Assembly: GCA_037440145.1 (NCBI GenBank)
Contig: JBBIUR010000020.1
Span: forward strand, 1-61,585
Length of the DNA: 61,585 nucleotides
Direction: 5' to 3'
Origin: Myxococcales bacterium
GTDB lineage: Bacteria > Desulfobacterota > Binatia > HRBIN30 > BPIQ01
This document shows positions 2,858 to 48,970 of this stretch, piece by piece; the stretch's first letter is position 1; each line of letters starts with the position of its first letter. The translations under genes and the position numbers were made by a program. The notes beneath the pieces are model-generated. The model saw only the letters and a program-made list of their open reading frames with translations. It did not search any database and was not told where the DNA came from.

Positions 2858-2975
2858 GCGGAGCAGTGGCACCTCGGGCCTCGATGGACCCGCTCGCGGG
2901 CCGGTACGGCGCCGCTGTGCCGGCTCGGCGCCGTGCCCCGGGCCGCGTGCCGGCGCGCCGCGGAGGGCTCCGGTA

Positions 2976-7779: not shown

Positions 7780-7826
7780 GCGCGGGGGAGGGAAGGCACG
7801 AACGGGTGTGCAGAAAGGAGGTTGCC

Positions 7827-8771: not shown

Positions 8772-8778
8772 TTTCACG

Positions 8779-8796
8779 ATCCGGGGGATATTTTTT
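8779..8796 (+). terminator. weak candidate intrinsic terminator after the LLM gene
   Basis: A 4-bp stem ATCC/GGAT with a GGG loop, followed by A and a T6 run (8791-8796). A T-run is conspicuous in this GC-rich DNA, but the stem is very short. Confidence 0.25.
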
Positions 8797-8885
8797 CGCT
8801 CTTTACCGCTGGGTTGGGAGGCACCGGGGTGGTGTTTCGTCGAGTCGCCCCGGCGTCGCCCGCCGCGGGTTCTCGCGCCGCGGCT

Positions 8886-14043: not shown

Positions 14044-14901
14044 GGTTCGGACCTCCGCTAGGACCCAGGAATCCCCGCTGTTCCAGGAAGCGCAGCTATA
14101 CCCCGCTACGGCGGACGGGTCGCCTACGAGGAAGCTGCTGCCCTGCTTGCGCTGCAAGCCGCCGCGCATCAGATAGGCCACGCGGTCGCGGGCCGAGAGC
14201 CGCGAATCGGGGGCAGCGACGCGCTTGGGCCGTGGTCTGGGCAGCTCGACCGCGAGCACCTTCCACGGGGACTCTCCCGCAGGTGCGCAGCTCGCCTCGT
14301 CCACCGCAGCAGCCGCGGCCCGCCGCAGCGCGCCCGCGGATACGTAGTGCGGCTCGGCGAGGGCGCTGTCCGCGCCCACCACGGCGGGAAGCCTGCAGCG
14401 CACGCGCTCGCGCCCACCGCGGTCCACGCGCCGCTCCGCTTCCAGCCACCCCGCGGCCGGTAGCCGCAGCTCGACTGCTCGAGTCACCAGCGGCCAATCC
14501 ATTTCTTCGGCGAGCCGCGCCGGGAAGAGGCCCGATCCGCCGTCCGCGCTGTACGTCCCGCACAGGACGAGGTCGGCGGGGTCGGCCGAGAGCAGCGCGG
14601 CAACGGCGTGCGCCGCAACCATGGGATCGAGAGGTTCGGGGCAGCGGATGTGAACAGCGCGGTGTGCGCCTGCCGCGAGGGCAAAGCGCAGCGCTGCCGG
14701 GGCCTCCGGCCCCCCGGCGCTGATCGCGGTCACGGCGCCCCCCAGCTCGCGGCAGAGCTGCAGGGCCTTTTCCAGCGCTGCCCGCTCGGCGGGCGGCACG
14801 CACGTGACCGGCCAGGGAGAGTCCTGCTCGATCCTGCCGTTCACGACGCGCAGAGGGACGCTGGGATCCAGGGTGTGCTTGACACAGACCGCGATCTTCA
14901 T
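14044..14901 (-). CDS. etfB: electron transfer flavoprotein beta-subunit-like protein that reads in frame into the FadH-like gene without its own stop codon
   Basis: ATG 14901; N-terminus MKIAVCVKHTLDP is typical of EtfB. About 286 codons precede the internal GGAGG-GTG of the next domain. The whole ORF 12088-14901 is continuous (937 aa). Confidence 0.65.
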
Positions 14902-14950
14902 CGGGCGCCCCCGCTTTCCCGTAAAGCCGCGCAGTGCGATTCGAGGCGGT

Positions 14951-33933: not shown

Positions 33934-35927
33934 CGCCCAGATCCTCCCATCGCTGCTGCCGCGGGCACTGCCCGGGCGCTCAGCTCTGCCCGCGCCAGGA
34001 TTTCCAGGGGATGGACCACCTGCCGGCCGGTTCCGTGTTCGATCTGGAGCTTGCACGCTCCGCAATCGGTCGCGATCTCGTCCCAGCGCGTGGAGCGCGC
34101 GGCAGCGAAGAGACCGGCGCCGATGGCCATCGACTCGCGGTAGTGCGCGCGCTCGAGGCCGAAGGTTCCCGACAGGCCGCAGCAGCCGCGGTCCAGCGGT
34201 GCGACCTCCACCCCGCGGACCCGCGCCAGCAGTTGCGGCGTCTCGTCGCGCAGCCCGAGCGCGCGGAGGTGGCAAGGGAGATGATAGCCGACTCGCCACG
34301 CGCGCCCGGGCAGCGTTCCCTCGACCCCGCGCTCGAGCAGAAACGGCGAAATGAAGCGCGTGTGGGCAGCGACGCGGTCGGCGGCGCTCGACGGAAACAG
34401 GCGCGGGTAATCCCGGGCGAGCGCGAGCTGGCAGCTCGGGCAGGTGGTGAGGATGGTAAGCCCGCGCTCCGCGTACGCCGCCAACGTGCGGACGTTGAAC
34501 TCCACGAGGCGCCGCGCGGCATCGATCTCGCCCTTCGCGTACAGCGGGATCCCGCAGCACTTCCAGGGCGGCAGGAGGACTTGGTAGCCGAGGTGTTCGA
34601 GGATCCGCACCGCGGTTTCCGCGACCTCGGGGTGGTTGTAGTTGGCAAAGCAGCCGTAGAAGTAGACCACGGGTGGGGTCCCGTTTCCCGCCGGCCGGCG
34701 GGGGCGCGCGTCGAAGCGGTCGCGCCGGAAGCGCGGCAGCTGGCGCTGCGGTGCAATGCCGAACACCTTGTCCATCACGGCCCGCACCGGGGGCAGCCCG
34801 ACCAGGTGGTTGCTGACCGGCGCCGCCCGCGAAAAGGCTCGGCTCAATGCCTCCACGTTACCCTGCACCCGCCGCTGCCAGTCCCCCCAGTTGCGGCCGC
34901 GCGCGCGCAGCGTCTCTTGCCGGCGCGCGGCGATCATGGCGGGAATCGGGATGTCGAGGGGGCAGTCGGCCTCGCAGTTCCCGCACAAGGTGCAAAGGTC
35001 GAGGCTCGGGTTTTCGCCGCGCAGGTGGCTCCACAGGTAATCCTTGGGCGACCACCCCCGCGGCCCCCGGAAAAACGGATAGGTCGGGCAGCGCGCGGAG
35101 CAGGCGCGGCAGCCGATGCAGTCGTAAAGAGCGCGGTGCGGCCCCTCGAGCAGGTCCCGCCGGCCGTTGTCGAGGAGGATCACTTCCACCGCCCGTTCTC
35201 CTTCGGAGAGGCCAGCCAGCGCGGCCAGTGGCTGCGCCGGCGCTGGGGTGCGCCCGAGATCGAGCAGCACTGCCTCGCAGCCGTAGGCGCTGCACGCGGC
35301 CACCTGCCGCTGTGCGGCGGCATCGTCGGCGACGATCTTCTCGCGGCCGACGGCAAACACCAGCGTCTGTGCCGCGGCGAGCAGCTCGCCGATATTCTCG
35401 GAGTGCTGCAGCAGGTAGAGCGAGCCGTTAGCGGCGCTCGCGGCGTTCACGCCCAGCAGGCCGAGCAGTGCGCGCGGCGGGTTCGAAGGCTCCTGCCAGG
35501 GGCGTGTCTGCCAGTTCGCGAGCGCTGGGGGGCGGGGCAACTGCCAGGCGTGCTCGTAGCGCGGCGCGAAGGAGCTGCCCTGGGGCCCGTAGGTCGAGAT
35601 CACCCGCACGCCCAGGTCGAGCAGGGATTCGTACAGCTCCGCCACCACCGCGGCGCGCGAGGCAGCGACGGGGCGCTCTTGGGCAAGGGCGGCAATGCGC
35701 GCCGCGGCTGCTGCGGCCGTGGGCGCCCAGGTTACGCGGACCCCCCGGGCTGCAAGGGCCTCAGCGAAGCGGGCGACCAGGACATCCGCATCGCAGGCGG
35801 CGCGTTGCCGGTCCGCCCGCAGCCGCGAGAGGTCGAGCGGCGCCTCGCTGGCCCTGCGGGCCAGGACTGCGGCCGAGCGCTCCTGCGCGGTGCGATTGCA
35901 TGGTTCGCGGAGGTAGATCGGCACCAT
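33930..35927 (-). CDS. LUD-domain + 2x[4Fe-4S] + two CCG-domain protein (LutB/LutA- or GlcF/HdrD-like fusion)
   Basis: ATG 35927 shares one nt with the hydantoinase B TGA (TGATG). The N-terminal region resembles the LutB/LutC LUD fold (GVNAASAANGSLYLL...FAVGREKIV). Then CIGCRACSARCP and CTLCGNCEADCP, then CCG motifs WKCCGIPL and RGCCGLSG. Confidence 0.65.
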   Translation of the reverse strand: MVPIYLREPCNRTAQERSAAVLARRASEAPLDLSRLRADRQRAACDADVLVARFAEALAARGVRVTWAPTAAAAAARIAALAQERPVAASRAAVVAELYESLLDLGVRVISTYGPQGSSFAPRYEHAWQLPRPPALANWQTRPWQEPSNPPRALLGLLGVNAASAANGSLYLLQHSENIGELLAAAQTLVFAVGREKIVADDAAAQRQVAACSAYGCEAVLLDLGRTPAPAQPLAALAGLSEGERAVEVILLDNGRRDLLEGPHRALYDCIGCRACSARCPTYPFFRGPRGWSPKDYLWSHLRGENPSLDLCTLCGNCEADCPLDIPIPAMIAARRQETLRARGRNWGDWQRRVQGNVEALSRAFSRAAPVSNHLVGLPPVRAVMDKVFGIAPQRQLPRFRRDRFDARPRRPAGNGTPPVVYFYGCFANYNHPEVAETAVRILEHLGYQVLLPPWKCCGIPLYAKGEIDAARRLVEFNVRTLAAYAERGLTILTTCPSCQLALARDYPRLFPSSAADRVAAHTRFISPFLLERGVEGTLPGRAWRVGYHLPCHLRALGLRDETPQLLARVRGVEVAPLDRGCCGLSGTFGLERAHYRESMAIGAGLFAAARSTRWDEIATDCGACKLQIEHGTGRQVVHPLEILARAELSARAVPAAAAMGGSGR

Positions 35928-37681
35928 CAGTGGCCACGGGCGGTCGACCGGGCGCCGCGCGGCGGCCGAGCCGCGGCGCTCGCTTTGCGGGCGTTGCGGC
36001 GGCTGCGAAGCCGCGCCGTCTTGGCCCAGTCGATTTGCCGCGTGCGGGGATCGATCACGACGCGGTAGACCTTTTCCGCTTGTTCGATAGAGACGTAGTC
36101 GTCGAGGACGTCGGCCAGCACTTTCTCGGGATCGCGGCGCCACGGCGGTCCGTACCCCCCGCCGCCGTTGGCGCGGATGCGCACCGTGTCTCCGGGCTGG
36201 AGCAGGTACCCCTTCTTCGGGTGTGGGCGCACCTTGCCGTTGATCAGGATGTCCGCTGGGGCTCCGGGCAGCCCGCCGCGCAACCCGAGCGGCGGGTGCT
36301 TGATTCGCTCCTGCATGCAGAAAAACGTCGCTGGCTTTTGGCTGCGCACCTGCACTTCGATTTCCTGGCCGAGGCCGCCGCGGTATTTTCCCGCGCCCGC
36401 GGAGTCGCGGATCATTTCGCGGCGCCGGACGAAGAGGGGGAACTCGTTTTCGATGACCTCGATCGGGATATCGGCGATCACGAAGGGGAAGAGCGTCGTG
36501 TACGAAAACATTGTAGATCTCGCTCCAATCCCTAACAATAAAAAAAAAATTCCGACCATGGGATCGCCGCGCTCGTTCGTGCCGATCACGCCGAAGTTCG
36601 ACACTGCGGCGGAATCAGCGACCACGCGGTTCGGGATGACCTTGCTCAGCGCGCCGAAGACCGCCGAGGGGATGTAGAAGCCCGTCAGGTGGCGGGCCAT
36701 GACGGGGGCGGGGTACTTCGCGTTCATGATGCTGCCCTCGGGCGCCACGAGAGTGAGCGGCCGGTAGCTGCCCTCGTTGTCGCGGACGTGCGGAAAGATC
36801 GAGCACATCAGGCACTGGTGGGTGAGGGCGAGGGTGTGGTTGTAGACGAGGTTGATTCCGTACATGCTCTGGGGCGAGCTTCCGGAGTAGTCGATCACGA
36901 TTTCCGAGCCTCGGATCGTGAGCGCCAGGGCGATCTTGACGGGATCGGTGGCATCGTAACCGTCGGCGAAGACCGTGTGGCGGTAAGTGCCGTCGGGAAT
37001 TGCCTCGATCGCCTGCCGCGTCGCCTGCTCCGTGGTGCCGATCATGGCCCGCGAAAGCCCCTGGAGGTCTTCCAGGCCGAACTCGTCCATCATCTTCGCG
37101 ATCTTCCTCGCAGCGGCTTCTGCGGCGCCCATTTGCGCTCGGATGTCGGAGACGACGACTTCTGGATGGCGGATGTTGCTCGAGAGGAACTCGAACACCT
37201 CGAAATTCGGCTCCCCTTCGGAATAGAGCTTCACGAACGGAATCAGGATGCCTTCCTCGTAAAGGGAGGTGCTGTCGGCCGAGAAGCCGCGGCCGCCCAT
37301 GTCGATGTGGTGGCCCAGGTACGCCGTGAACCCCACGAGGCGGTCGCGGAAGAAGATGGGAACCACGACCGCCGTGTCGTTGATGTGCCCTCCGACGCGC
37401 CAGGGGTCGTTGGAAATCAACACGTCGCCGGGGCGGAGGTCGTCGGGAGTGAACTTTTCCAGGAAGCACTTGACCGTCTGGCGGATGTGGCACTCGCCCT
37501 CGTCCGCGTGGGTCATGAAATTCCCCTCGCGGTCGTAGAGGCCTGCCGAGCAGTCCTTCGCCTCGCGGATGATCGGCGAAAAAGCCGCGCGAATCAGCCC
37601 GGCGATTTCCTCGTTGAGGATCGCGCGGCAACGATTCCAGAGGATCTCCAGCGTGACCGGATCGAACGCTTCCATCGGCAT
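35927..37681 (-). CDS. hydantoinase B / oxoprolinase family protein
   Basis: N-terminus DPVTLEILWNR; C-terminal NEFPLFVRRREMIRDSAGAGKYRGGLG and GGGGYGPP. The second ATG (37675) has better spacing to AAGGAG than ATG 37681. Confidence 0.8.
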   Translation of the reverse strand: MPMEAFDPVTLEILWNRCRAILNEEIAGLIRAAFSPIIREAKDCSAGLYDREGNFMTHADEGECHIRQTVKCFLEKFTPDDLRPGDVLISNDPWRVGGHINDTAVVVPIFFRDRLVGFTAYLGHHIDMGGRGFSADSTSLYEEGILIPFVKLYSEGEPNFEVFEFLSSNIRHPEVVVSDIRAQMGAAEAAARKIAKMMDEFGLEDLQGLSRAMIGTTEQATRQAIEAIPDGTYRHTVFADGYDATDPVKIALALTIRGSEIVIDYSGSSPQSMYGINLVYNHTLALTHQCLMCSIFPHVRDNEGSYRPLTLVAPEGSIMNAKYPAPVMARHLTGFYIPSAVFGALSKVIPNRVVADSAAVSNFGVIGTNERGDPMVGIFFLLLGIGARSTMFSYTTLFPFVIADIPIEVIENEFPLFVRRREMIRDSAGAGKYRGGLGQEIEVQVRSQKPATFFCMQERIKHPPLGLRGGLPGAPADILINGKVRPHPKKGYLLQPGDTVRIRANGGGGYGPPWRRDPEKVLADVLDDYVSIEQAEKVYRVVIDPRTRQIDWAKTARLRSRRNARKASAAARPPRGARSTARGH

Positions 37682-37696: not shown

Positions 37697-39784
37697 CTAT
37701 TTTCCGGGCACGGAAACGACCAGGTTGCCAAGCTCGTCCACGACGACGCTGCCCCCGGGGCCGACTACGGTGGTGGACTCCCGCTCCTCGATCACCGCCG
37801 GGCCCTCGCAGCGAAACCCGGGCTGGAGGCGATAGCGGTCGTAGACCGGGCACGGCTGCGCGCGGCCGAACTCGGGGAAGTACACGTCGCGTTCGCCTTT
37901 CAAGGGGCTGCCTCCTGCGGCGCCCGCGTCGCTGCGAAATTGCAGCTCCAGGCGGGGCCGGGGCCCGGAGGCCATGACCTTCCAGTTCACGCCCATGACC
38001 TCCAGGTCCGGATGGCTCCAGTTGAACTTCTGCATGTGCACGCTGGCAAAGGCCGCTAGGATCTCCTCGCGATGCTTTGGCTGCAATTCCCCGGCGGGAA
38101 TAGGCACCTCGATCTCCCGGCCCTGCAGCGCGTAACGCATGTCGGCGGTGCGCGTGTACGCGATTTGGTCGGGCCGCACTCCCGCGCGCCCGAGCAGCCG
38201 CCGCCCTTCTTCTTCCATCTCCCGGTAGATTCGGTTGAGAACCGCGCAGTCGAGCTGGTTCATCTTCAGGATATACGTGCGGATGAAATCGAACGAGAGA
38301 GGCGCGACCAGAAAGCCCAGGGCGGAGGCCACCCCCGCCGCGTGCGGCACGACGAAGCGCCGGATGTTCAGCTTGCGGCAGAGGTTGAAAGCGTGCACCG
38401 GGCCGGCGCCGCCGAAGGCGATCATCGTGTAGGGATCGAGCTCGACGCCCTTTTCGACCGCTAGCACTCGCGCGGCGTTGGCCATGTTCTCATCGACCAC
38501 GTTGCACACGCCCCACGCAGCCTCGAGCAGCCCCAAGCGCGCCGGCCGCGCGACGTGCTTTTCGAGCGCTTCTACGGCGGCTCCGACATCGAGCGCCATC
38601 TCCCCGCCGAGAAAGTAGTTGGGGTTCAGCCACCCCAAGACGAGATCCGCGTCGGTCACGGTCGCCGCCTGGCCACCCCGCCCGTAGCATGCCGGCCCTG
38701 GATCGGCACCTGCGCTCATCGGCCCCACAGCAAGGAGGCCCATTTCATCGATGCGCGCGATCGAGCCGCCGCCGGCGCCGATCTCCAACATCTCGATCAC
38801 CGGCAGGTTGATCGGCAGGCCGCTTCCCTTCTTGAAGCGCGCCATCCGCGCGATCTCGAACTCCTTGGTGACCGATGGCTTCGCATTGTCGATCAGGCAG
38901 CTCTTGGCCGTCGTGCCGCCCATGTCGAACGAGAGTACGCGGGGGCACTGCAGGCGCTCGCTCAGGGAGGCAGCCAGCACGGCGCCCGCGGCGGGGCCCG
39001 ATTCGAGGATCCGAATCGGAAAGTCGCGCGCTACCTCTGGCGTCGTGATGCCGCCGTGGGAGAGCATCATGAAGAACTCGCCGCCGAAGCGGAGGTCCTG
39101 CAGGCGCTGGACGAAGCTGGACAGGTAGCGGCGCGTCTCGGGTAGGGCAAACGCGTTCGCCACCGTCGTCGAGGCTCGCTCGTATTCGCGGATCTCGGGA
39201 ATCAACTCCGAGGAGAGCGTCACGCTCGTGCCCGGCGCGATTTTGTGGATGATCTCCCGCATCCGCCGCTCGTGCACGGGGTTGCGGAACGAGTGGAGAA
39301 AGCAAACCGCAAAGGCCTCCACCCCGTCGGCGAGGAGCTCGCGCACCACGCGCGCCGCCTGGCGCTCGTCGAGCTTGGTGTGCACTGCGCCCTGCGCGTC
39401 GATGCGCTCCCGGATGCCCCTGCGCCAGCGCCGGGGCACCAGCGGCTTCGGCATCTCGATGTTGATGTCGTAGTTGTCGTAGCGGCTGCCCCGGCCGACC
39501 TCGAGGAAGTCCCGAAACCCTTCGGTTACCAGCAGCGCTGTCTTCGCGCCCGTGCGCTGGATCAGGGTGTTGATCACCAGCGTGGTGCCGTGGATCAACT
39601 GCTGCACATCGCGCTCGAGCGATACCCCCCGGGCCTTGCACAAGCCCCGCAGCCCCTCGACGGCCGCCCGCGCCGGGTCCACCGGATCGGTCAAAACCTT
39701 CGCGGTGTGCACCTCCTGCCGGGCGGCGTCCACCATCGCCAAATCCGTAAACGTCCCCCCGATGTCGCAACCAATTCGATACAC
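37697..39784 (-). CDS. hydantoinase A / oxoprolinase family protein (ATP-binding subunit)
   Basis: GTG 39784 lies 7 nt after AGGAG; the 751-aa extended ORF is rejected. Motifs YRIGCDIGGTFTD, SFDMGGTTAK and FGGAGPVHA. Confidence 0.8.
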   Translation of the reverse strand: MYRIGCDIGGTFTDLAMVDAARQEVHTAKVLTDPVDPARAAVEGLRGLCKARGVSLERDVQQLIHGTTLVINTLIQRTGAKTALLVTEGFRDFLEVGRGSRYDNYDINIEMPKPLVPRRWRRGIRERIDAQGAVHTKLDERQAARVVRELLADGVEAFAVCFLHSFRNPVHERRMREIIHKIAPGTSVTLSSELIPEIREYERASTTVANAFALPETRRYLSSFVQRLQDLRFGGEFFMMLSHGGITTPEVARDFPIRILESGPAAGAVLAASLSERLQCPRVLSFDMGGTTAKSCLIDNAKPSVTKEFEIARMARFKKGSGLPINLPVIEMLEIGAGGGSIARIDEMGLLAVGPMSAGADPGPACYGRGGQAATVTDADLVLGWLNPNYFLGGEMALDVGAAVEALEKHVARPARLGLLEAAWGVCNVVDENMANAARVLAVEKGVELDPYTMIAFGGAGPVHAFNLCRKLNIRRFVVPHAAGVASALGFLVAPLSFDFIRTYILKMNQLDCAVLNRIYREMEEEGRRLLGRAGVRPDQIAYTRTADMRYALQGREIEVPIPAGELQPKHREEILAAFASVHMQKFNWSHPDLEVMGVNWKVMASGPRPRLELQFRSDAGAAGGSPLKGERDVYFPEFGRAQPCPVYDRYRLQPGFRCEGPAVIEERESTTVVGPGGSVVVDELGNLVVSVPGK

Positions 39785-39794
39785 GCCTGTGCTC

Positions 39795-39807
39795 CTGGTC
39801 TGACCAG
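39795..39807. promoter_or_regulatory. palindromic operator, copy 1 (CTGGTC-T-GACCAG)
   Basis: Perfect 6-1-6 inverted repeat. On the minus strand it sits between the candidate -10 box and the hydantoinase A RBS, which it overlaps by 2 nt. The core TGGTCTGACCA fits the GntR/FadR-type pattern T.GT-N3-AC.A. Confidence 0.6.
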
Positions 39808-39808
39808 C

Positions 39809-39838
39809 TATATACCGGCACAGGCGTGGAAGTGTCAA
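39809..39838 (-). promoter_or_regulatory. candidate sigma70-type promoter of the minus-strand gene train
   Basis: Read on the minus strand: TTGACA (39838-39833), an 18-nt spacer, then TATATA (39814-39809). It lies in the only AT-rich patch upstream of hydantoinase A. Confidence 0.55.
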
Positions 39839-39853
39839 GCAATCAAGCCATAA

Positions 39854-39882
39854 TTGACAATTCCGCCCGGCCGCGATAGACG
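39854..39882 (+). promoter_or_regulatory. candidate promoter of the plus-strand gene train (weak -10)
   Basis: TTGACA (39854-39859), a 17-nt spacer, then TAGACG (39877-39882; 3 of 6 matches to TATAAT). It is arranged back-to-back with the minus-strand -35 box (TGTCAA-N15-TTGACA). Confidence 0.35.
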
Positions 39883-39892
39883 GGGGTGGTTT

Positions 39893-39907
39893 ACTGGTCT
39901 GACCAGT
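39893..39907. promoter_or_regulatory. palindromic operator, copy 2 (ACTGGTC-T-GACCAGT)
   Basis: Perfect 7-1-7 inverted repeat immediately upstream of the RBS AGGAGGGAG (39909-39917) of the first plus-strand gene. It has the same 13-nt core as copy 1. Confidence 0.6.
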
Positions 39908-39921
39908 CAGGAGGGAGAACT

Positions 39922-40770
39922 GTGGAACCGACGGGCGTCGATGTTGCTGCATTGGATCATCCCTTTCGGGAAGGGCTGCTGGCGGGCCGCGTGGCGATCG
40001 TCACCGGAGGCGGCACCGGGTTGGGCAAGGCGATCGCGTCGCTGTATGCGCGGCTCGGGGCGCGCGTGGTGCTGGCGAGCCGATCGATGGACCATCTGCT
40101 GCCGGCGGCCGAGGAGATCCGAGCCGCCGGCGGGGTGGCGTCGGTGGTTTCGGTGGACGTGCGCAAGGTGGAGGACGTCGACCGGATGATCGCGCACACG
40201 CTGGAGACCTTCGGGAAAATGGACATCTTGGTGAACAACGCGGCGGCAAACTTCCTCGTGCAAGCGGAAAACCTTTCGCCGCGCGGCTGGAACGCCTTGG
40301 TGGACATCGTGCTCAACGGCTCGTACTACGCCAGCCGGGCGTTCGGGCGCGCCTTGATCGAGCGCAAGCAGCCCGGCCAGATCTTGAACATAGTGTCCAC
40401 CTATCCCTGGACGGGCTGTCCGGGTGCCGTGCACCACGCTTCCGCCAAAGCGGGTGTGATGGCGCTGACAATGACGCTGGCGGTAGAGTGGGCGCGCTAC
40501 GGGATCCGCGTGAACGCCATTGCGCCCGGCCCCTTCGAAACCCCAGGGCCGATGGAAAAGTTCAACTTCACCGTCGGCGACGAGGTCTACGAGCGGGTGC
40601 GGCAGGACGTGCCCCTCAAGCGCTTCGGCCAGCCGCGCGAGCTGGCATGGCTGGCAGCGTACCTGGTCAGCGATTACGCCGCATTTATCAACGGAGAAAC
40701 CGTGGTCATCGACGGCGGCACGTGGCTGAGCAAGGGGTATTTCCCTTACTTCACGCCCGGCGTGCTCTGA
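39922..40770 (+). CDS. SDR family oxidoreductase, 2,4-dienoyl-CoA-reductase-like subtype
   Basis: GTG 39922 follows AGGAGGGAG. Motifs VTGGGTGLGKA and NNAA. The active-site region VHHASAKAGV lacks the classical Tyr, as in DECR-type SDRs (from memory). Confidence 0.75.
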   Translation: MEPTGVDVAALDHPFREGLLAGRVAIVTGGGTGLGKAIASLYARLGARVVLASRSMDHLLPAAEEIRAAGGVASVVSVDVRKVEDVDRMIAHTLETFGKMDILVNNAAANFLVQAENLSPRGWNALVDIVLNGSYYASRAFGRALIERKQPGQILNIVSTYPWTGCPGAVHHASAKAGVMALTMTLAVEWARYGIRVNAIAPGPFETPGPMEKFNFTVGDEVYERVRQDVPLKRFGQPRELAWLAAYLVSDYAAFINGETVVIDGGTWLSKGYFPYFTPGVL

Positions 40771-40775
40771 ACGCC

Positions 40776-41078
40776 ATGCCCCCGCGCCAGGTTCGGGTTA
40801 CGGTCGAACTCATGGGCCCGTTCGAGTTCGACTTCGGTGCCACCGGCGCCGAGATCGACGTGCCCGAGCCCGCTACCGTAGGCGCCCTCGTCGAGGCGCT
40901 CGCTGCAAAGTGGCCCGCCGCAGTGCGGCTGCGCGAACTGCTCTGCGATCCCTCGCCGCGCGGCCGCTATTGCTGCGTCTCGCTCGACCACGAAGTGCTG
41001 CCCCCCGAGGACGTGCTGGCCACACCGCTGCGCGATGGCGCCCACGTCTGCTTCGCGCTCCCCATGGCCGGGGGCTGA
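40776..41078 (+). CDS. MoaD/ThiS-family ubiquitin-like (beta-grasp) protein with a C-terminal Gly-Gly
   Basis: ATG 40776, 5 nt after the SDR stop; 100 aa. It ends LRDGAHVCFALPMAGG-stop, compared with the MoaD ending L.DGDEVAFFPPVTGG (from memory). Confidence 0.6.
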   Translation: MPPRQVRVTVELMGPFEFDFGATGAEIDVPEPATVGALVEALAAKWPAAVRLRELLCDPSPRGRYCCVSLDHEVLPPEDVLATPLRDGAHVCFALPMAGG

Positions 41079-41174: not shown

Positions 41175-43173
41175 ATGGGGAGCCGAGTCGTCCCGGGGGA
41201 CGGAGCCGCGGTTCGGTTTGCGGCGGGCAGTGGGCGGGTGCCGGAGGGCATCAGCCGGCGCGGGTTTCTCTGCAGTGCGGGAGCGGCTGCGGTAGCGCTC
41301 TGTCTGGGCCGCCTGGTGCCTCGGGCGACTGCAAGTGGTGCCGGGGCGGTGGCGGTGAGCCCCGCAGTGCCTGACTACCGGAGCTGGGAGGACGTGTACC
41401 TGAGGCGGTGGACTTGGGATCGCGTGGTCAAAGGCGCCCACCACGTGATCAACTGCGTCTCATCGTGCCCGTTCCTCGTCTTCGTCAAGGACGGCATCGC
41501 TTGGCGCGAGGAACAGAACGCGGTGATGGAGGCGAACGGCCCAGCGCTGCCCGACTTCAATCCCCGCGGCTGCCAGAAGGGCATCTGCACGAGCCAACTC
41601 ATGTACGGCCCGCAGCGCCTGAAGTATCCGCTCGAGCGGGTGGGGCCGCGCGGTTCGGGGAAATGGAGGCGGATTTCGTGGGACGAAGCCCTCACGCCGA
41701 TCGCCGACGCGATCCTCGATGTGGCCGCGCAGGACGGGACGGAGTGCGTGGTGTACGACAGCGGCACGGCGAACGCCGATTACAGCGCTTCGACTGCGGG
41801 CGAGGTGCACTTTTTCGATCTGCTGGGTGCCACCCAGCTCGACGGCTGGGCCGCGGCGGGTGACATGCCGCTCGGCGTCCTCATGACGTGGGGGATCTTC
41901 AATGTCGACGGAACCTCCGACGACTATTTCCACGCCGACCTGATCTACTTGTGGCTCGGCAACCCGACGTACACGCGCATTCCCGATGCGCACTTCATCT
42001 GGGAGGCGCGCTACCGCGGCAGCAAGGTGGTCAGCGTCGCCCCCGACTACAACGCCTCGAGCGTGCACGCGGACCTGTGGGTCCATCCCCGCGTGGGCAC
42101 CGATGCGGCGCTCGCCCTCGGCATGGCGCAGGTGATCGTCGCGGAGCGGCTCTACCGCGCCGACTTCGTAAAGGAGCAGACCGATCTCCCGCTGCTGGTC
42201 CGGGAAGACACGCGGCGCTTTCTGCGCCAGTCAGACCTGCGACAGGGCGGAGCGGAGAACATCTTCTACTTGTGGGATACCCGCAGGGGATCTGCCGTCC
42301 AGGCGCCGGGGTCCGAGGGATTGGATCGCGGCACGACGCTAGAGCTGGGCGCGCTGGATCCAGCCCTGGAGGGGCGCTTCGAAGTGCGCCTGGCCGACGG
42401 GCGGAGTGTCGGCGTGCGCCCGCGAGTTTGCTGCAGCCCGGGCCGTCACGGTCTTCGGATCGTGGGGCATGATGAAGCACCACCACAGCGATCTCGTCCA
42501 GCGCTCGCTCCTCCTGTTGCTGGCGCTCACCGGCAACGTGGGCCGCCGCGGCGCCGGGGTGCGCATCGGCGCCTGGTACATGATGAGCAGCCTCGAGCCC
42601 TTGCTGGCGAAGGTGAAGCCAGCCTGGTGGCAGAAGCTGCTCTTGCGAGTGTACCGCCCCACGGTGCGAGAGCTGATCAGCTACTTCCGCGATTACGAGC
42701 GCGAGCACATGTACATGAACATCCCCGCGCTCCTGTTCCTCTACTACCATGGGGGCCTGAAGGAGCTCGTCGACCGGCCGACCGGCGGCCACACGCGCTG
42801 GTCGATCCACTCGACCTTCCGCGACGAAGTGCACATGCTGCGGTTGCAGCGCGGCGCTCCCGTTGCCTACCTCAACCCGGAGGACGCAGCGGCGCGCGGC
42901 ATCCGCGACCACGACCGAATCCGCGTGTTCAACGACGTCGGATCGTGCGAGCTCGCGGCCAAGATTTCCCCTTCGGTCCAACCCGGCCAGGTGATCGTCT
43001 ACCACGCCTGGGAGCCGTTCCAGTTTCCCGAGTGGCGCAGCCCGCAAGACCCGGTCCCTTCGCCATGGAAGTCGCTCCACTTGGCGAGCTACGGGCAGCT
43101 CCACTACCGCTTCCTGTACGCGGGGCCGCACCACGCGCCGCGGGCGACGGCGGTGGAGGTGGCGAGGGCGTGA
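41175..43173 (+). pseudogene. decayed NarG/EbdA-like molybdoenzyme gene, paralogue A3 (frameshifting deletion plus a large in-frame deletion)
   Basis: The first ~415 codons (frame of ORF 41082-43226) match A4 closely up to ...GVRP (about nt 42420). Homology then resumes in another frame (ORF 42406-43173: REFAAARAVTVFGSWGMMKH...). A second gap joins LKELVDRP directly to TGGHTRWSIHS at nt 42780/42781. The twin-arginine motif SRRGFL is retained. Confidence 0.8.
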
Positions 43174-43207
43174 GGGGTGGCTCCGAGCGAAAGGGGGTTT
43201 CCGAGCC

Positions 43208-46066
43208 ATGCACGAGATGGGAATGACGCGCAGGCAGTTCCTGTGGGGGATCGGCGCGACGGGGTTGAGCTTGTCGCTCGCCCGCCTCGCGTGGCTGCCC
43301 GGGCGGGCACTCGCCCAAGGGGTCCCCGCTCCCCTGCCGCCCTACCGGGAGTGGGAGGACCTCTACCGGCAAAAGTGGCAGTGGGACAAGGTGGTCAAAG
43401 CCGCCCACCATGTCGTCAACTGCGCTTCCTCGTGCCCGTTCGACGTCTTCGTGAAGGACGGGATCGTGTGGCGCGAGGAGCAGAACGCGGTCATGGAGGC
43501 GAATAAGCCCTCGCTGCCCGACTTCAATCCCCGCGGCTGCCAGAAGGGCGTCTGCACGAGCCAGTTGATGTACAGCCCGCAGCGGCTGAAGTATCCCCTC
43601 AAGCGCGTCGGCCCGCGCGGCTCGGGAAAGTGGAAGCGCATCTCTTGGGACGAGGCGCTCACGGAGATCGCCGACAAGATCCTCGACGTCGCGCTCCGGG
43701 ACGGCATCGAGTGCGTCGTCTACGATAGCGGCACCGCGAACGCCGGTTACGACGCGCCGACCGCAGGGGAAACCCATTTCTTTAACCTGCTCGGCTGCAC
43801 GCAGCTCGATGGCTGGGCGGCTGTGGGCGACATGCCGCTCGGTATGATCCTCACGTGGGGCCTGTTCAACGTCGACAGCACGTCCGACGATTACATGAAC
43901 GCAGACTTGATCCTGCTGTGGCTGGGCAACCCGACGTACACGCGCATCCCCGACGCGCACTTCATCTGGGAGGCGCGCTACCACGGCAGCAAGGTGGTCA
44001 GCATTGCCCCGGACTACAATGCGTCGAGCATCCACGCCGACCTATGGTTGAACCCCCGCATCGGCACCGATGCTGCCCTCGCCCTCGGGATGGCCCACGT
44101 GCTGGTCGAGGAACAGCTCTACAACGCCGCCTTCGCGAAAGAGCAAACCGACCTGCCGTTGCTCGTCCGGGAGGATACGGGGCGCTTTCTGCGCGAGTCG
44201 GACCTCCGCCAGGGCGGGGCGGAGAACATCTTCTACCTCTGGGATACCCGCAGCGGCTCCGCCGTGCAGGCCCCGGGCAGCGAGGGGCTCGGGCGCAGCA
44301 CCACGCTCGCACTGGGCGGACTGGACCCCGCGCTGGAGGGACAGTTCGAAGTGCAGCTCGCAAGCGGGCAGAAGGTGCGCGTGCGGCCCGTTTTCGAACG
44401 GCTGCGGAAGCGACTGGCGGATTACCCGCCAGAGAAGGTGGCGCAGATCACCGGCGTGAACGCCAAGCTCGTCGCCGACCTGGCGCGAGAGATGGCCCGC
44501 GCCAAGGCCGTCACGATGTTCGGCTCCTGGGGCATGATGAAGCACTATCACAGCGACCTCTTCCAGAGATCGATCCTGTTGCTGCTGGCGCTTACGGGCA
44601 ACGTGGGCCGCCGCGGCGCGGGGATCCGGGTGGGCGCTTGGTATATGCTCAGCAGCCTCGAGTACATCCTGAGCGCCGTCAAGCCGACCTGGTACCAGAA
44701 GGCCCTGATGGCAGTCTTCAAGCCCACGGTGCGGGAGCTGATCGGGTATTTCCGCGCCTACGAGCGAGAGCACATGTACATGAACGTGCCTGCGCTGATG
44801 TTTCTGTACGAGCACGGCGGACTGAAGGAGGTGGTGGATCGGCCCGAGTACCATGATGCGAACCCCGGCAAGGTGCTGCCCGAAGCGATGAAGGAGTCGA
44901 TCGAGCACGAGTGGGTGCCGCTCTACCCGAAGCCCGGAAAACCGCCGCGCGTCTACATTCACACACGCGTCAACCCCCTGCGGCGCTGGCCGGCCCCGCA
45001 GGTGGTCGAGAAACACCTGTGGCCCAAGCTCGAGCTGATCGTGGCCGTGAACCTCAAGATGTCCACGACGGCGGCGAAGTCGGATATCGTGCTCCCCGCA
45101 TGCGGCCCGTACGAGCGGCGCGGAATCAAGTACGCCCAGAGCTACGTGCCCTATTACGCCGTGGGCGAGAAGGCCGTGGAGCCGCTGGGCGAGTCGAAGA
45201 GCGAGTGGGAAATCGCCGGCCTGCTGGCGCGCAAGATCCAGGAACGGGCGCGCGCCCGAGGCATGCAGCCCATTCGCGATGCCAAGGGCAAGCCCCGCGA
45301 CTTCACCACGCTCTATGACCAGTGGAGTCACCAGGGGCGGTTCCAGCCCGAGGACGATCTGCCTTTTTACGAAGCGGTGACGCGAGAGTCGCCCGAGATC
45401 GGCAAGATCCCGTGGGCGGAGGCCGCGCGGCAGGGGGCGGTGCGCATTCAGGATGTGGGTCCGTTCCGCACGCACACCAACCTCTGCAGCGACTACGAGC
45501 CCGGAGATACGATCTACCCCTGCCAGTGGTTCGTGCAGCACAAGCAGCCGTGGCCGACGCTGACGGGCCGGCAGCAGTTCTACATCGACCACGAGTGGTT
45601 CTTGCGCGCCGGAGAGGAGCTGCCGGTGCACAAGGAGCCCCCCAAGGCCGGGGGGGACTATCCGTTGCGCCTGACCGGCGGCCACACGCGCTGGTCGATC
45701 CACTCCATCTGGCGCGAGGAAAGGCACATGCTGCGGTTGCAACGGGGCGAGCCCGTGATGTACATCTCGCCTGCCGATGCGGCCGCGCGCGGCATCGGCG
45801 ACAACGATCGCGTGCGGATGTTCAACGACGTGGGCGCTTGCGTGCTGCGGGCAAAAATCGCCCCGGCGGTGCAGCCGGGAACGGTGATCGTGTACCACGC
45901 TTGGGAGCCGTTCCAGTTTCCCGGCTGGCGCGGGAGCCAGGAGCCCGTGGCCTCGCCGTGGAAGTCGCTGCACGTCGCGGAATACGGCCAGCTCCACTAC
46001 CGGTTCCTGTTCGCCGGCCCGCACCACGCACCGCGTGCGACCAGCGTGGAGGTCCAGCGTGCCTGA
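43208..46066 (+). CDS. Tat-signal molybdopterin oxidoreductase catalytic subunit (NarG/EbdA-like), paralogue A4
   Basis: Motifs MHEMGMTRRQFLWGIGATGLSLSLARL...ALA-QG, AAHHVVNCASSC...NPRGCQKGVC, GDMPLGMILTWG, IPDAHFIWEARYHG and APDYNASSIHADLWL; 952 aa. The exact start (ATG 43208, or the 2nd or 3rd ATG) is uncertain. Confidence 0.8.
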   Translation: MHEMGMTRRQFLWGIGATGLSLSLARLAWLPGRALAQGVPAPLPPYREWEDLYRQKWQWDKVVKAAHHVVNCASSCPFDVFVKDGIVWREEQNAVMEANKPSLPDFNPRGCQKGVCTSQLMYSPQRLKYPLKRVGPRGSGKWKRISWDEALTEIADKILDVALRDGIECVVYDSGTANAGYDAPTAGETHFFNLLGCTQLDGWAAVGDMPLGMILTWGLFNVDSTSDDYMNADLILLWLGNPTYTRIPDAHFIWEARYHGSKVVSIAPDYNASSIHADLWLNPRIGTDAALALGMAHVLVEEQLYNAAFAKEQTDLPLLVREDTGRFLRESDLRQGGAENIFYLWDTRSGSAVQAPGSEGLGRSTTLALGGLDPALEGQFEVQLASGQKVRVRPVFERLRKRLADYPPEKVAQITGVNAKLVADLAREMARAKAVTMFGSWGMMKHYHSDLFQRSILLLLALTGNVGRRGAGIRVGAWYMLSSLEYILSAVKPTWYQKALMAVFKPTVRELIGYFRAYEREHMYMNVPALMFLYEHGGLKEVVDRPEYHDANPGKVLPEAMKESIEHEWVPLYPKPGKPPRVYIHTRVNPLRRWPAPQVVEKHLWPKLELIVAVNLKMSTTAAKSDIVLPACGPYERRGIKYAQSYVPYYAVGEKAVEPLGESKSEWEIAGLLARKIQERARARGMQPIRDAKGKPRDFTTLYDQWSHQGRFQPEDDLPFYEAVTRESPEIGKIPWAEAARQGAVRIQDVGPFRTHTNLCSDYEPGDTIYPCQWFVQHKQPWPTLTGRQQFYIDHEWFLRAGEELPVHKEPPKAGGDYPLRLTGGHTRWSIHSIWREERHMLRLQRGEPVMYISPADAAARGIGDNDRVRMFNDVGACVLRAKIAPAVQPGTVIVYHAWEPFQFPGWRGSQEPVASPWKSLHVAEYGQLHYRFLFAGPHHAPRATSVEVQRA

Positions 46067-46072
46067 CGGGCG

Positions 46073-48970
46073 GTGGGAAGCCAGAGCGCGCGCGGGGGCG
46101 GGCGATCCGTGACGATCACGCGCCGCGAGTTTCTCCAGGGGACCGGGGCGGCGGTCCTGAGCTTATCGCTCGGGCGGCTCGCGTTCCTCGGCGAAGCGCA
46201 GGCCGCTCGCGCTGTCCCCGGCTCGGGCGTGCCCGACTACCGCAGTTGGGAGGACGTGTACCGGCGCAAGTGGACTTGGGACCGGATCGCAAAAGGCACC
46301 CATTACGTCAATTGCTGGTACCAGCGCGGGTGCAATTGGGATGTCTACGTCAAGGACGGCGTCGTTTTCCGCGAGGAGCAAGCGGCGACCTATCCGCAGA
46401 CGAACCCCGAGGTCCCCGATTTCAACCCCCGCGGCTGCCAAAAAGGGGCCTGCTACAGCTTGCGGATGTACGACCCGGATCGCATCCGCTACCCGCTCAA
46501 GCGAATCGGGCAGCGCGGCGAGGGCAAGTGGAAGCGCGTGAGCTGGGAAGAAGCGCTGCGCGAAATCGCATCGGCGCTGCTCGAGGTCCTCCGCGAGGAA
46601 GGGCCCGGAGCCATTTACTGGGACATGGGCACTGCTGCAACCAACGGCTGCCACGGGCTCGGCCTCTTCCGCACCTCGCAGGTGCTCGACACGCCCTTCC
46701 TCGACATGAACGCGGAGATCGGCGACCACCACCCGGGCGCAGCCGTCTCTTGCGGCAAGATCGTCTTCGCCAGCTCGGGCGACGATCTCTTTTACTCCGA
46801 CCTGATTCTCATCTGGGGCGGAAACCCGCTCTACACCCAAATTCCCAACGCCCATTTTTTCACCGAGGCGCGCTACCGCGGCGCGCGGGTAGTCACCATC
46901 GCGCCCGACTACAGCCCGTCGGCAATCCACGCGGATCTGTGGGTGCCCCTCCAGGTGGGTACGGACGCCGCGCTGGGCCTGGCACTCGCTCACGTGATCG
47001 TCGCCGAAGGGCTCTGCGACCGCAGCTTTGTGGCCGAGCAAACCGACCTGCCCTTGCTCGTGCGCAGGGACAACCGTCGCTTCCTGCGCGCGCGCGATCT
47101 GCAAAAAGGAGGCAGCGAGGAGACGTTCTATCTCTACGACCGCCGCACCGGTCGGGTCCGGGAGGCTCCATCGGCCCGCCTCGACCTGCAAGGGATCGAG
47201 CCTGCGCTCGAAGGGGAGTTCGAGGTCTCGACGCCTTCGGGACCCGTGACCGTCGTTCCGGTCTTCCAGTTGCTGCGTGAGCACCTGGCGGCCTATTCGC
47301 CCGAGGCGGCGGCGAAGATTACGGGTACGCCCCCCGAGGTAATCCGTCGCCTCGCGCGCGACATCGCCCGGGCAAAGGCCGCCACGGTGCTGACGCAGTC
47401 GAATTTCTCGAAGTTCTACCACGGCCTGGAAATGGAGCGCGCGCAGATCCTGGTGCTCGCACTCTGCGGCCACTTCGGGAAAAAGGGCAGCGGCCTGAAC
47501 GCCTTCCCTTGGTTGACGATCGACTCTTCCGAGGCGCTCGGAACCGCTCCGGCCCTGCCGATGCAGTTGGCCCTGATCGCGCTGGGAGCGCAGAACGCGC
47601 CGAAGTGGGCGGCGGCGAAGTGGAAGGGCTGGACTGACGAGATGTTCCTCTACAACGAGGCGCGCGAGATGTACCGCAAAGGGGGGTTCGTCTCCTCGGT
47701 CCTCTTCTATTACCTTCACGGGGGCTTCAAGGAGCAGATGCGCCGTGCCGGCAAGGTGGATCCGAGCTTGCGGCGGGAACTGGACGCGTACGTGGAGGAG
47801 GCCTTGGCCAGGGGCTGGCAGATCGCGCCGACCACGCCCCCGAAAATTCTCTTCGCGGAGGGCGGCAACATCTTCCGTCGGGTGCGCGGCTACCCGGTGC
47901 TGCTGGAGAACCTGCTCCCCAAGCTGCGGCTGCTCGTGACGGTCGACTGGCGCATGAGCACGACAGGTCTGTACAGCGATTACGTGTTGCCCGCGGCCGG
48001 GTATTACGAAAAGGATGACATAACCTGGGCGACGCCGATCGCGCCGTTCGCCCACGTGACCACCAAGGCAGTCGAGCCCCTCGGCGAGGCGAAGCACGAG
48101 TGGCAGTTCCATTGCCTGCTGCTGAAGGAGCTGCAGGCCCAGGCGGTCGCCGCCGGGCAGACCACGTACCGCGATCGCGCCGGCAACGAGCGGCGCCTCG
48201 ATCGCGTGTACGACGAGTTCACGTTCGGCCAGCGCTACACCGAGCGCGATGCGGAGCCGTTCTTGCGCGACATGGTCGCAATGGCGACAAACCTGAAGGG
48301 CACGACCTGGGACGAGCTGAAGGAGAAGGGATTTGCCCGCTACACGGGGCTCGGCATGGGCCTGATCAACATCGGGAACGCGACCGATATCGAACCCGGC
48401 CAGACGGTCACGGCAAACCGCTGGCACGTCGAGAAGAAAATGCCGTGGCCGACTCTTACCCGCCGCATCCAGTTTTACATCGACCACGACCTCTACCTCG
48501 AGCTGGGCGAGGAGCTGCCGGTGCACAAAGACAATCCGCCAATCGGCGGCAACTACCCGCTGCAGATGACCGGCGGGCACGCGCGCTGGTCCATCCATAC
48601 GATGTGGCGGCCCGATCCGCGGCTGCTGCGGTTGCAGCGGGGCGAGCCGGTCTTGTTTCTCAGCACAGCCGACGCGCGCGCTCGCGGCATTGGCGACAAC
48701 GACCGCGTGCGGGTCTACAACGATTTCGGTTCCTTCGAGGTCCGGGCCCGCATCGCCCCCTCGGTGCGCCCCGGCCAGGTGATCATCTACCACGCCTGGG
48801 AGCCGTTCCAGTTTCGGGGGCGGCGGTCCCACCAAGTCGTCACTCCCAGCCCGATCAACCCGATCCAACTGGCGGGCGGGTATTTTCACTTGCAGCCGAT
48901 GCCCATTGCGTGCGAGCCGGGGCAGAACGACCGCGGCACGCGCGTGGAGGTGGAAAAGATCGCGACCTGA
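46073..48970 (+). CDS. Tat-signal molybdopterin oxidoreductase catalytic subunit (NarG/EbdA-like), divergent paralogue A5
   Basis: Motifs ITRREFLQGTGAAVLSLSLGRL...AQA-A, GTHYVNCWYQRGC...NPRGCQKGAC, IGDHHPG, IPNAHFFTEARYRG and APDYSPSAIHADLWV. The start is GTG 46073 or GTG 46109 (giving VTITRREFL). Confidence 0.8.
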   Translation: MGSQSARGGGRSVTITRREFLQGTGAAVLSLSLGRLAFLGEAQAARAVPGSGVPDYRSWEDVYRRKWTWDRIAKGTHYVNCWYQRGCNWDVYVKDGVVFREEQAATYPQTNPEVPDFNPRGCQKGACYSLRMYDPDRIRYPLKRIGQRGEGKWKRVSWEEALREIASALLEVLREEGPGAIYWDMGTAATNGCHGLGLFRTSQVLDTPFLDMNAEIGDHHPGAAVSCGKIVFASSGDDLFYSDLILIWGGNPLYTQIPNAHFFTEARYRGARVVTIAPDYSPSAIHADLWVPLQVGTDAALGLALAHVIVAEGLCDRSFVAEQTDLPLLVRRDNRRFLRARDLQKGGSEETFYLYDRRTGRVREAPSARLDLQGIEPALEGEFEVSTPSGPVTVVPVFQLLREHLAAYSPEAAAKITGTPPEVIRRLARDIARAKAATVLTQSNFSKFYHGLEMERAQILVLALCGHFGKKGSGLNAFPWLTIDSSEALGTAPALPMQLALIALGAQNAPKWAAAKWKGWTDEMFLYNEAREMYRKGGFVSSVLFYYLHGGFKEQMRRAGKVDPSLRRELDAYVEEALARGWQIAPTTPPKILFAEGGNIFRRVRGYPVLLENLLPKLRLLVTVDWRMSTTGLYSDYVLPAAGYYEKDDITWATPIAPFAHVTTKAVEPLGEAKHEWQFHCLLLKELQAQAVAAGQTTYRDRAGNERRLDRVYDEFTFGQRYTERDAEPFLRDMVAMATNLKGTTWDELKEKGFARYTGLGMGLINIGNATDIEPGQTVTANRWHVEKKMPWPTLTRRIQFYIDHDLYLELGEELPVHKDNPPIGGNYPLQMTGGHARWSIHTMWRPDPRLLRLQRGEPVLFLSTADARARGIGDNDRVRVYNDFGSFEVRARIAPSVRPGQVIIYHAWEPFQFRGRRSHQVVTPSPINPIQLAGGYFHLQPMPIACEPGQNDRGTRVEVEKIAT

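Follow-up and report, generated by a model that had tools for sequence, protein, structure and literature searches.

Two conserved copies of a perfect 13-bp palindrome as putative FadR-type operators in the divergent control region of a catabolic gene cluster from uncultured Binatia

Introduction

How might a bacterium that cannot be grown control two long, divergent trains of catabolic genes from one short stretch of intergenic DNA? The question is raised by contig JBBIUR010000020.1 of assembly GCA_037440145.1, a 61,585-nt stretch from an uncultured Binatia-like bacterium that was analyzed over its whole length (hereafter, the window, to whose positions all coordinates refer unless a related locus is named). 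In it, a 137-bp gap (39785-39921) separates a hydantoinase-A-like gene (hydA) on the minus strand from a gene for a short-chain dehydrogenase/reductase (SDR) on the plus strand. A preliminary description of this gap had listed back-to-back TTGACA boxes, a tandem TCAAGC repeat, and two copies of a perfect palindrome, and it had proposed that a single repressor could gate both trains. All of the listed elements were found where they had been placed. Below, we show that the two palindromes are strongly conserved among related loci, and we argue that they are almost certainly bound by a regulator and are probably operators for one dimeric repressor that would gate both promoters.

Results

Two copies of a perfect palindrome in the gap

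The 13-bp palindrome CTGGTCTGACCAG (architecture CTGGTC-N-GACCAG, written as a search pattern as CTGGTCNGACCAG) occurs exactly twice in the 61.6 kb of the window, at 39795-39807 and 39894-39906. The copy nearer to hydA, here called the proximal site, reads CTGGTCAGACCAG on the hydA-sense strand, and the other, the distal site, extends to a 15-bp palindrome, ACTGGTCTGACCAGT, at 39893-39907. The claim that the window holds no other copy was borne out even when one mismatch was allowed, the next best match (47629) having two. The core TGGT-N3-ACCA is found in only these two places, with 0.24 expected by chance, and a repeat search recovered the pair as a 13-nt direct repeat with a 99-bp spacing. 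With a GC content of 56%, versus 68.5% for the whole window, the gap is among the most AT-rich stretches; it had been described as the most AT-rich intergenic one. Among all 137-bp stretches of the window it is not the extreme, since 36429-36565 (inside hydB, 47% GC) and 8667-8803 (55%) are lower.

Conservation across related loci

The comparison covered 11 independent orthologous hydA upstream regions, namely, those of the window and of loci L001, L008, L009, L010, L011, L014, L015, L017, L018, and L019, after L012 and L013 (identical to L011) and L016 (identical to L015) had been collapsed. HydA identity among the 11 loci is 75 to 81%, and the order hydA, hydB, LUD/CCG protein, ferredoxin, AFOR-family enzyme, NMO, and CoA-transferase is kept in all ortholog loci. 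The closest HydA proteins overall (75 to 91% identical, with 91% for the best match in the protein collection) come from metagenome-assembled genomes labeled Candidatus Binatia, “Deltaproteobacteria,” or “Desulfurellales”; the proteins encoded by the window itself do not occur in that collection. Scans with HydA returned five loci from genomes and two from metagenomes, among which L001 was the sole true ortholog context; L002 (61% identity) and L003 (53%) were set aside, their hydA genes lying inside other operons that carry no site. The annotated plasmid collection held short, single-gene matches at 75 to 85% identity and no related record.

Upstream of hydA, a common anatomy is apparent: TTGAC(A/T), N17-18, TATAnA, 0 to 1 base, CTGGTC(A/T)GACCAG, GGAG, 5 to 11 nt, and the hydA start codon. 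The proximal copy is exact or near-exact in 10 of the 11 loci, with its center 17 to 23 bp before the hydA start and its position always directly after the -10-like box; in L011, it is half-degenerate, with only the right half retained. A second copy is present upstream of hydA in every one of the loci. Substitutions amount to one per site in L019 and one in the distal site of L015. The centers of the two copies are 86, 87, 97, 98, 98, 99, 99, 99, 100, 110, and 230 bp apart, such that 7 of the 11 loci have a spacing of 97 to 100 bp. When ten of the regions were aligned with MAFFT, the mean column identity over the aligned region was 55%, and the invariant or near-invariant columns were almost all concentrated in six blocks: the distal palindrome, TGTCAAT, CTTGAC, TATA.A, the proximal palindrome, and the ribosome-binding site. 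Read on the hydA-sense strand, 20 of the 22 sites have A as the central base of the palindrome (39801 and 39900 in the window), and the two sites are therefore direct, not mirror-image, copies, although they face divergent promoters.

Among 305 kb of related loci, there are 20 palindrome matches with at most one mismatch, versus 1.4 in shuffles, and 19 of them lie inside the hydA upstream gap. The remaining one is a third copy, CTGGTCCGACCAG, at 2141-2153 of L014, which lies ~50 bp upstream of a gene for a MoaD/ThiS-like protein (hereafter, moaD-like); in this locus, that gene has been relocated ~8 kb from hydA, with unrelated genes between. The moaD-like gene is otherwise a conserved divergent partner of hydA, with orthologs of 99 to 100 aa in L001, L008, L010, L011, L014, L015, and L017. 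It is the divergent partner, alone or together with other genes, in L001, L008, L010, L017, L019, and L018 (where it is uncalled), it is followed by an ethylbenzene dehydrogenase (EBDH)-like gene in L011, and it is preceded by an SDR gene in L015/L016, as in the window. The distal site is also retained upstream of hydA in two loci where this partnership has been broken: L014, although the moaD-like gene has moved away, and L009 (at ~99 bp), where hydA is faced by an unrelated 211-aa gene and the TTGACA of the opposite strand has been lost.

This clear phylogenetic footprint indicates that the palindromes function in cis and belong with these two transcription units. By the measure of comparative sequence, they behave as real cis-regulatory sites, invariant in 11 independent regions amid otherwise unconserved intergenic bases, and the earlier view of them as control elements is thereby strengthened.

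Promoter-like boxes on both strands

On the minus strand, the candidate hydA promoter consists of a -35 box, TTGACA (39833-39838), an 18-nt spacer, and a -10-like box, TATATA (39809-39814), as had been described from the sequence. CTTGAC, which includes most of the -35 box, is invariant in the 10-locus alignment, and the -10-like box has the family consensus TATAnA. A single base separates TATATA from the proximal palindrome, so the putative proximal operator (39795-39807) begins 1 bp past the -10-like box; its final two bases are shared with the hydA Shine-Dalgarno sequence AGGAG (39796-39792, minus strand).

On the plus strand, the second TTGACA (39854-39859), likewise confirmed, would serve the SDR, moaD-like, and EBDH-like genes. 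Read in the hydA sense as TGTCAAT, it is shared by 8 of the 11 loci, mostly at a distance of 18 bp from the -35 box of hydA, and it is absent from L009 and L001; in the window, the two -35 boxes are 15 bp apart. A weak -10-like sequence, TAGACG (39877-39882), may complete this promoter; it lies 17 nt past TTGACA, a spacing also seen for TAGAGT in L014, TAGAGG in L018, and TAGGAC in L019, in each of which 7 to 8 nt then lead to the operator. In the window, the putative distal operator (39893-39907, with the 13-bp core at 39894-39906) begins 11 bp past TAGACG, and the SDR ribosome-binding site, AGGAGGGAG (39909-39917, plus strand), begins 2 nt beyond it. Each site is thus placed just past a -10-like box, which agrees with the proposal that the sites lie at or just downstream of the transcription starts, these being predicted.

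Both copies of TCAAGC are real (39835-39840 and 39843-39848), and the first is the hydA -35 box read on the other strand; the second (plus strand) is window-specific and has no counterpart in relatives. The tandem repeat was accordingly rejected as an element, and its second copy is probably not functional, judging by the alignment. The -35 boxes belong to an 11-nt imperfect inverted repeat, GGAAGTGTCAA / TTGACAATTCC (39828-39864), with arms 15 nt apart and flanks that are not conserved in relatives. A perfect 11-nt inverted repeat, CACGCCTGTGC / GCACAGGCGTG (39782-39792 and 39818-39828), has its first arm in the -35/-10 spacer of hydA and its end on the GTG, so that the -10 box, the proximal operator, and the Shine-Dalgarno sequence are all enclosed by it. 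Folded as RNA (-24.7 kcal/mol; z = -4.1), it would hide the hydA start; it is window-specific, with partial similarity in L018 only.

Candidate family of the regulator

The preliminary description had likened the palindromes to the FadR-subfamily consensus T.GT-N3-AC.A, and this likeness holds: both sites read TGGTCTGACCA and fit the FadR-type consensus TNGTNNNACNA (PMC11472048). They resemble FadR-subfamily operators on two counts, the fit to this consensus and a close match to an experimentally bound operator.

The search for a cognate gene covered ~390 kb in total, comprising the window and the related loci (including ~40 kb of one 250-kb contig). Pfam searches of all sizeable open reading frames in the 61.6-kb window, including 7780-8885 and both ends, revealed no transcription-factor gene, which fits the suggestion that the regulator is encoded outside the window. 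It had also been suggested that a GntR/FadR (or TetR) gene might be sought nearby, and none was found in the 10-kb flanks of 14 related loci. Walks of 20 to 30 kb via the ortholog of an old yellow enzyme (OYE)-like reductase gene, on the 250-kb contig and two others, recovered neither a regulator nor a recurrence of the palindrome. The 100-aa moaD-like protein was considered as a regulator and rejected, given its C-terminal Gly-Gly, its weak ThiS/MoaD similarity, and its lack of DNA-binding features. The regulator itself was not found in these loci, and the GntR/FadR assignment is drawn from operator resemblance; the most likely candidate is a FadR-subfamily, GntR-type repressor, which would be encoded away from the cluster.

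Discussion

A proposed divergent switch

We favor, with reasonable confidence, a reading in which the two 13-bp palindromes are operators for one dimeric, probably FadR-subfamily GntR repressor that is encoded away from the cluster and gates both promoters. The data show directly where the sites lie, that they are unique in the window, and that they are conserved, whereas the promoters and starts assigned to them, the sense of the control (repression, not activation), the kind of protein that binds, and its effector are all inferred. The gap would hold two back-to-back sigma-70-type promoters, with one operator after each. On the hydA side, a start 6 to 8 nt past the -10-like box would fall inside the left half-site, and the operator, which begins 1 bp past that box, would thus cover the predicted start while abutting the ribosome-binding site; on the SDR/moaD side, the operator would begin 7 to 11 bp past the weaker -10-like box. 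Repression is the natural reading, because a bound dimer would occupy DNA that the polymerase must melt or clear, and the regulator would be expected to block open-complex formation or promoter escape at both promoters. Release might be brought about by a pathway intermediate, either a carboxylate or a coenzyme A (CoA) thioester; the acyl-CoA ligands raised in the preliminary description are conjecture. One co-induced operon would then supply the SDR, the moaD-like protein, and EBDH-like Mo enzymes for hydroxylation and alcohol oxidation, while the other would supply HydA/HydB, Fe-S proteins, an AFOR-family enzyme, and CoA-transferases for ketone activation and downstream steps. The enzyme logic at the two promoters parallels that of ethylbenzene conversion to 1-phenylethanol, then to acetophenone, and then carboxylation. 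Co-induction from one control region makes sense in that logic, since EBDH-type hydroxylases, an SDR, and a hydantoinase-type, ATP-dependent enzyme all belong to it. The two sites may additionally assist each other, as in two-operator FadR/LldR promoters.

Alternative explanations

Several observations weigh against the repressor model just outlined, and some of them speak for other models. Its promoters are imperfect: the -35 boxes are perfect and conserved, but the -10-like boxes are noncanonical (TATAnA and TAGACG, both lacking the consensus final T), the starts are predicted only, and a simple, strict sigma-70 consensus scan calls no promoter in the gap, because TATATA lacks the consensus T at position 6. 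Its reach may be limited as well. In relatives, the distal half of the minus-strand train, with the genes for the electron-transfer flavoprotein (ETF), OYE-like, and acyl-CoA dehydrogenase (ACAD) proteins and their neighbors, is found as separate, differently oriented operons that either converge with the hydA operon or lie on other contigs, without the palindrome; control of two ~20-gene trains (~50 kb) by one pair of sites, as had been proposed, therefore goes beyond the evidence. Furthermore, the shared strand of the central base is not predicted by a purely symmetric, promoter-by-promoter model, and this, taken together with the retention of the distal site in L009 and L014, points to possible cooperation between the two sites at the hydA promoter as well. 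A stronger version, in which the sites act mainly as a cooperative pair on that promoter, with the main operator at the start, an upstream auxiliary, and possibly DNA looping between them, seems to us rather unlikely but worth serious consideration. It would explain why the distal site persists both in L009, despite the unrelated neighbor and the lost opposite-strand TTGACA, and in L014, despite the departure of the moaD-like gene, which has a site of its own, why spacings cluster at 97 to 100 bp, and why both sites share an orientation, and it has precedents in two-operator looping by LldR (PMC8689689) and in two-site FadR promoters (PMC4259882). On the other hand, spacings of 86, 87, 110, and 230 bp also occur, 97 to 100 bp corresponds to a non-integral ~9.2 to 9.5 helical turns, 8 of the 11 loci keep the -35 box on the opposite strand, and the operator travels with the moaD-like gene in L014. 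Back-to-back promoter geometry would itself yield a common spacing, since -35 boxes ~18 bp apart, two promoter lengths, and the offsets add up to ~99 bp. Looping is thus not needed to account for the 99-bp spacing, given that geometry suffices and the phase is ~9.4 turns.

The operators may also be genuine while the binder differs, either by belonging to another dimeric family (TetR, IclR, MarR, Xre, or similar) or by acting as an activator or dual regulator. Other dimeric regulator families bind short palindromes too, perfect ones being common to many of them, and neither a GntR/FCD gene nor any other helix-turn-helix regulator gene appears within 10 kb in the gene tables of 14 related loci, nor a cognate GntR gene in the ~390 kb searched. 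In L014, the moaD-like gene has its best promoter-like boxes (TTGCGT-N18-TACAAT) downstream of the third site, and such an upstream placement of the site is more typical of activation. We nevertheless consider a different binder or mode of action unlikely, as the 11-bp core is identical to that of an experimentally defined FadR-type operator, the 13-mer is only 2 positions off the E. coli fadBA FadR site, and a placement right after the -10 box is typical of repression, with an LldR site likewise spanning -4 to +13. Far less probable is a role in RNA, whether as short 5'-untranslated-region hairpins that influence how stable the mRNA is or how it is translated, or as targets of an RNA-binding protein. 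Both copies do lie within predicted short 5' leaders beside ribosome-binding sites, and the 13-mer can pair into a stem of 5 bp around a 3-nt loop, yet this hairpin is weak (-5.8 kcal/mol) and no better than those of shuffles (z = 0.27), the gap has no Rfam match, and sequence conservation is strict, without compensatory changes. In addition, the predicted hydA start falls inside the left arm, so that the full hairpin would not be transcribed. Finally, chance or the neutral duplication of a functionless repeat deserves almost no credence: with the core expected 0.24 times per window, the invariance of the palindrome across 11 independent loci in unconserved DNA, and the excess of matches in related loci (20 versus 1.4 expected, all promoter-proximal), this reading is effectively refuted by the comparative data.

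Gene content of the two trains

The minus-strand operon opens with hydA (37697-39784, GTG start at 39784), whose product begins VYRIGCDIGGTFTD and carries the Pfam domains Hydant_A_N, Hydantoinase_A, and Hydant_A_C of the hydantoinase/oxoprolinase A family. The closest NCBIfam models, for the caprolactamase alpha subunit and acetophenone carboxylase subunits, are all matched far below their equivalog cutoffs, and PDB matches (7hk5, 6yra, 5l9w, and 5m45) place N-methylhydantoinase, 5-oxoprolinase/caprolactamase, and acetophenone and acetone carboxylase among its relatives. The second gene is hydB, of the hydantoinase B family (35927-37681, minus strand), and there follow, in an order conserved in relatives, genes for an LUD/4Fe-4S/CCG protein, a ferredoxin, and an AFOR-family enzyme. 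This association of an AFOR-family enzyme with ferredoxin and an HdrD-like LUD/CCG protein is one that we take to resemble BamBCD. The conserved order runs on through NMO, a double CoA-transferase III, and an EBDH-like Mo enzyme. The train continues with a second CoA-transferase, a MaoC hydratase, and an SDR; then with two luciferase-like enzymes, a PNPOx-like protein, ETF alpha, a membrane CCG/Fe-S protein, and ETF beta; and it ends with an OYE-like reductase, an ACAD, an amidohydrolase, and an alpha/beta hydrolase. A previously unannotated stretch at 7780-8885 is luciferase-like. At 12088-14994 (minus strand), an ETF-beta domain and the OYE-like, 2,4-dienoyl-CoA-reductase-like enzyme share one uninterrupted frame, while relatives have two genes with an 8-nt overlap, and the single frame reflects either a fusion or a sequence error.

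The plus-strand operon begins with the SDR gene (39922-40770, GTG start at 39922), for which the best NCBIfam match is a 2,4-dienoyl-CoA reductase-type SDR, below the model cutoff. The moaD-like gene (40776-41078, plus strand) encodes 100 aa with a C-terminal Gly-Gly and weak ThiS/MoaD/Urm1 similarity, and its product may be a dedicated sulfur carrier that supplies Mo/W cofactor to the enzymes of the cluster. Three tandem genes for EBDH-like (DMSO reductase type II) alpha subunits occupy 41247-48970 (plus strand). The first of them (41247-43170) is frameshifted and truncated: compared with the next paralog (43208-46066), to which it is 76% identical, it shows a change of frame near 42407-42423 and a loss of ~274 residues (paralog positions 547 to 820), which makes it either a decaying duplicate or an assembly error. 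Two FAD oxidoreductases come next, and then ACADs, thiolases, SDRs, a luciferase-like enzyme, and an APH-like kinase (starting at ~61050). In total, the window holds five EBDH-like alpha-subunit genes (2448-5852, 24868-27750, and those at 41247-48970), none with an adjacent beta or gamma gene. For the OYE-like reductase (12091-14019, minus strand), a homolog with 50% identity is present in the anaerobic steroid degrader Steroidobacter denitrificans, and this homolog and the APH-like kinase together hint, weakly, at a steroid- or isoprenoid-type substrate.

Implications

The proposed switch is of a conventional, familiar bacterial type, of which it is a newly seen and well-conserved instance. 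It is an unusually clean case, in that a perfect palindrome has stayed intact across at least 11 uncultured genomes, and it heads a large cluster that brings five EBDH-like Mo enzymes and an AFOR-family (tungsten-type) enzyme together with a hydantoinase/carboxylase-like pair, CoA-transferases, and genes of beta-oxidation. Once defined, an operator offers routes to the regulon, to the regulator, and, via the effector, to the substrate in organisms that cannot be grown, and its main value is as a handle on an uncharacterized catabolic island in uncultured Binatia. More speculatively, and we hold this to be possible although doubtful, the palindromes might mark a lineage-wide Binatia regulon, in which an unlinked, intermediate-responsive, FadR-like regulator would switch on an oxygen-independent pathway, with the twin operator serving as both two gates and a cooperative pair. 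Such a pathway, with an alkyl-chain, isoprenoid, or steroid-like compound as its substrate, would combine EBDH-type hydroxylation, SDR oxidation, and ATP-dependent ketone activation of the hydantoinase type with an AFOR-family enzyme that resembles BamB and has an HdrD-like partner. Were this true, the operator would be a direct handle on the regulator, the inducer, and hence the substrate.

Comparison with known systems

Among characterized regulators, the closest parallel at the level of the site is LldR of Corynebacterium glutamicum, a GntR-family, FadR-subfamily protein acting on cgl2917-lldD, whose operator contains an 11-bp core, TGGTCTGACCA, identical to the core found here. From that site, which lies across the transcription start, LldR represses (PMC2602784; PMC11472048); the operator, TGTGGTCTGACCATGA, spans -4 to +13 and is bound by one dimer per site with a Kd of 81 nM (PMC2602784). 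In the window, by contrast, the palindrome is 13 bp long and is present as two full-strength copies that serve divergent promoters, the host is an uncultured Binatia-like bacterium, and the genes encode EBDH-like, hydantoinase-like, and AFOR-family enzymes rather than a lactate dehydrogenase. The nearest thing to a lactate-utilization gene is that for a fused LUD/Fe-S/CCG protein inside the hydantoinase/AFOR/CoA-transferase operon. No lldR, lldP, or lldD lies nearby, so this is not an LldR lactate regulon in the strict sense.

The E. coli FadR sites share the half-site CTGGT(A/C) and the same N3 center. At fadBA, the FadR site is ATCTGGTACGACCAGAT, and fadL and fadD have two FadR palindromes each (PMC4259882); the portion CTGGTACGACCAG of the fadBA site differs from our 13-mer at 2 of 13 positions. 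The likeness extends to a fadR gene that is unlinked to its targets, to promoters with two sites, and to targets that include beta-oxidation-type genes. The E. coli sites are, however, mostly imperfect 17-bp palindromes, FadR also activates fabA and fabB, its ligand is long-chain acyl-CoA, and no FadR homolog was found in the sequences examined here. A paired arrangement is also seen for E. coli LldR at lldPRD, where operators O1 and O2 flank the promoter and repression is reported to depend on their spacing and on DNA looping (PMC8689689). In that system, O1 and O2 act on a single promoter and the operon itself encodes the regulator, whereas the gap described here has one operator per divergent promoter, a non-integral helical spacing, and no linked regulator that we could find. 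PdhR boxes are related to the O1/O2 arrangement.

With respect to the enzymes, the nearest counterpart is Aromatoleum aromaticum, in which the ebd-ped and apc-bal operons of the ethylbenzene/acetophenone pathway are controlled by sensor/regulator systems and are not known to depend on a FadR-type palindrome. The alpha-subunit genes in the window differ from those of A. aromaticum in having no adjacent beta or gamma genes, and HydA is nearer to the caprolactamase alpha subunit than to the Apc subunits. The logic of the enzymes is nevertheless common to the two systems: hydroxylation by an EBDH-type Mo enzyme, alcohol dehydrogenation by an SDR, and ATP-dependent ketone carboxylation of the hydantoinase type.

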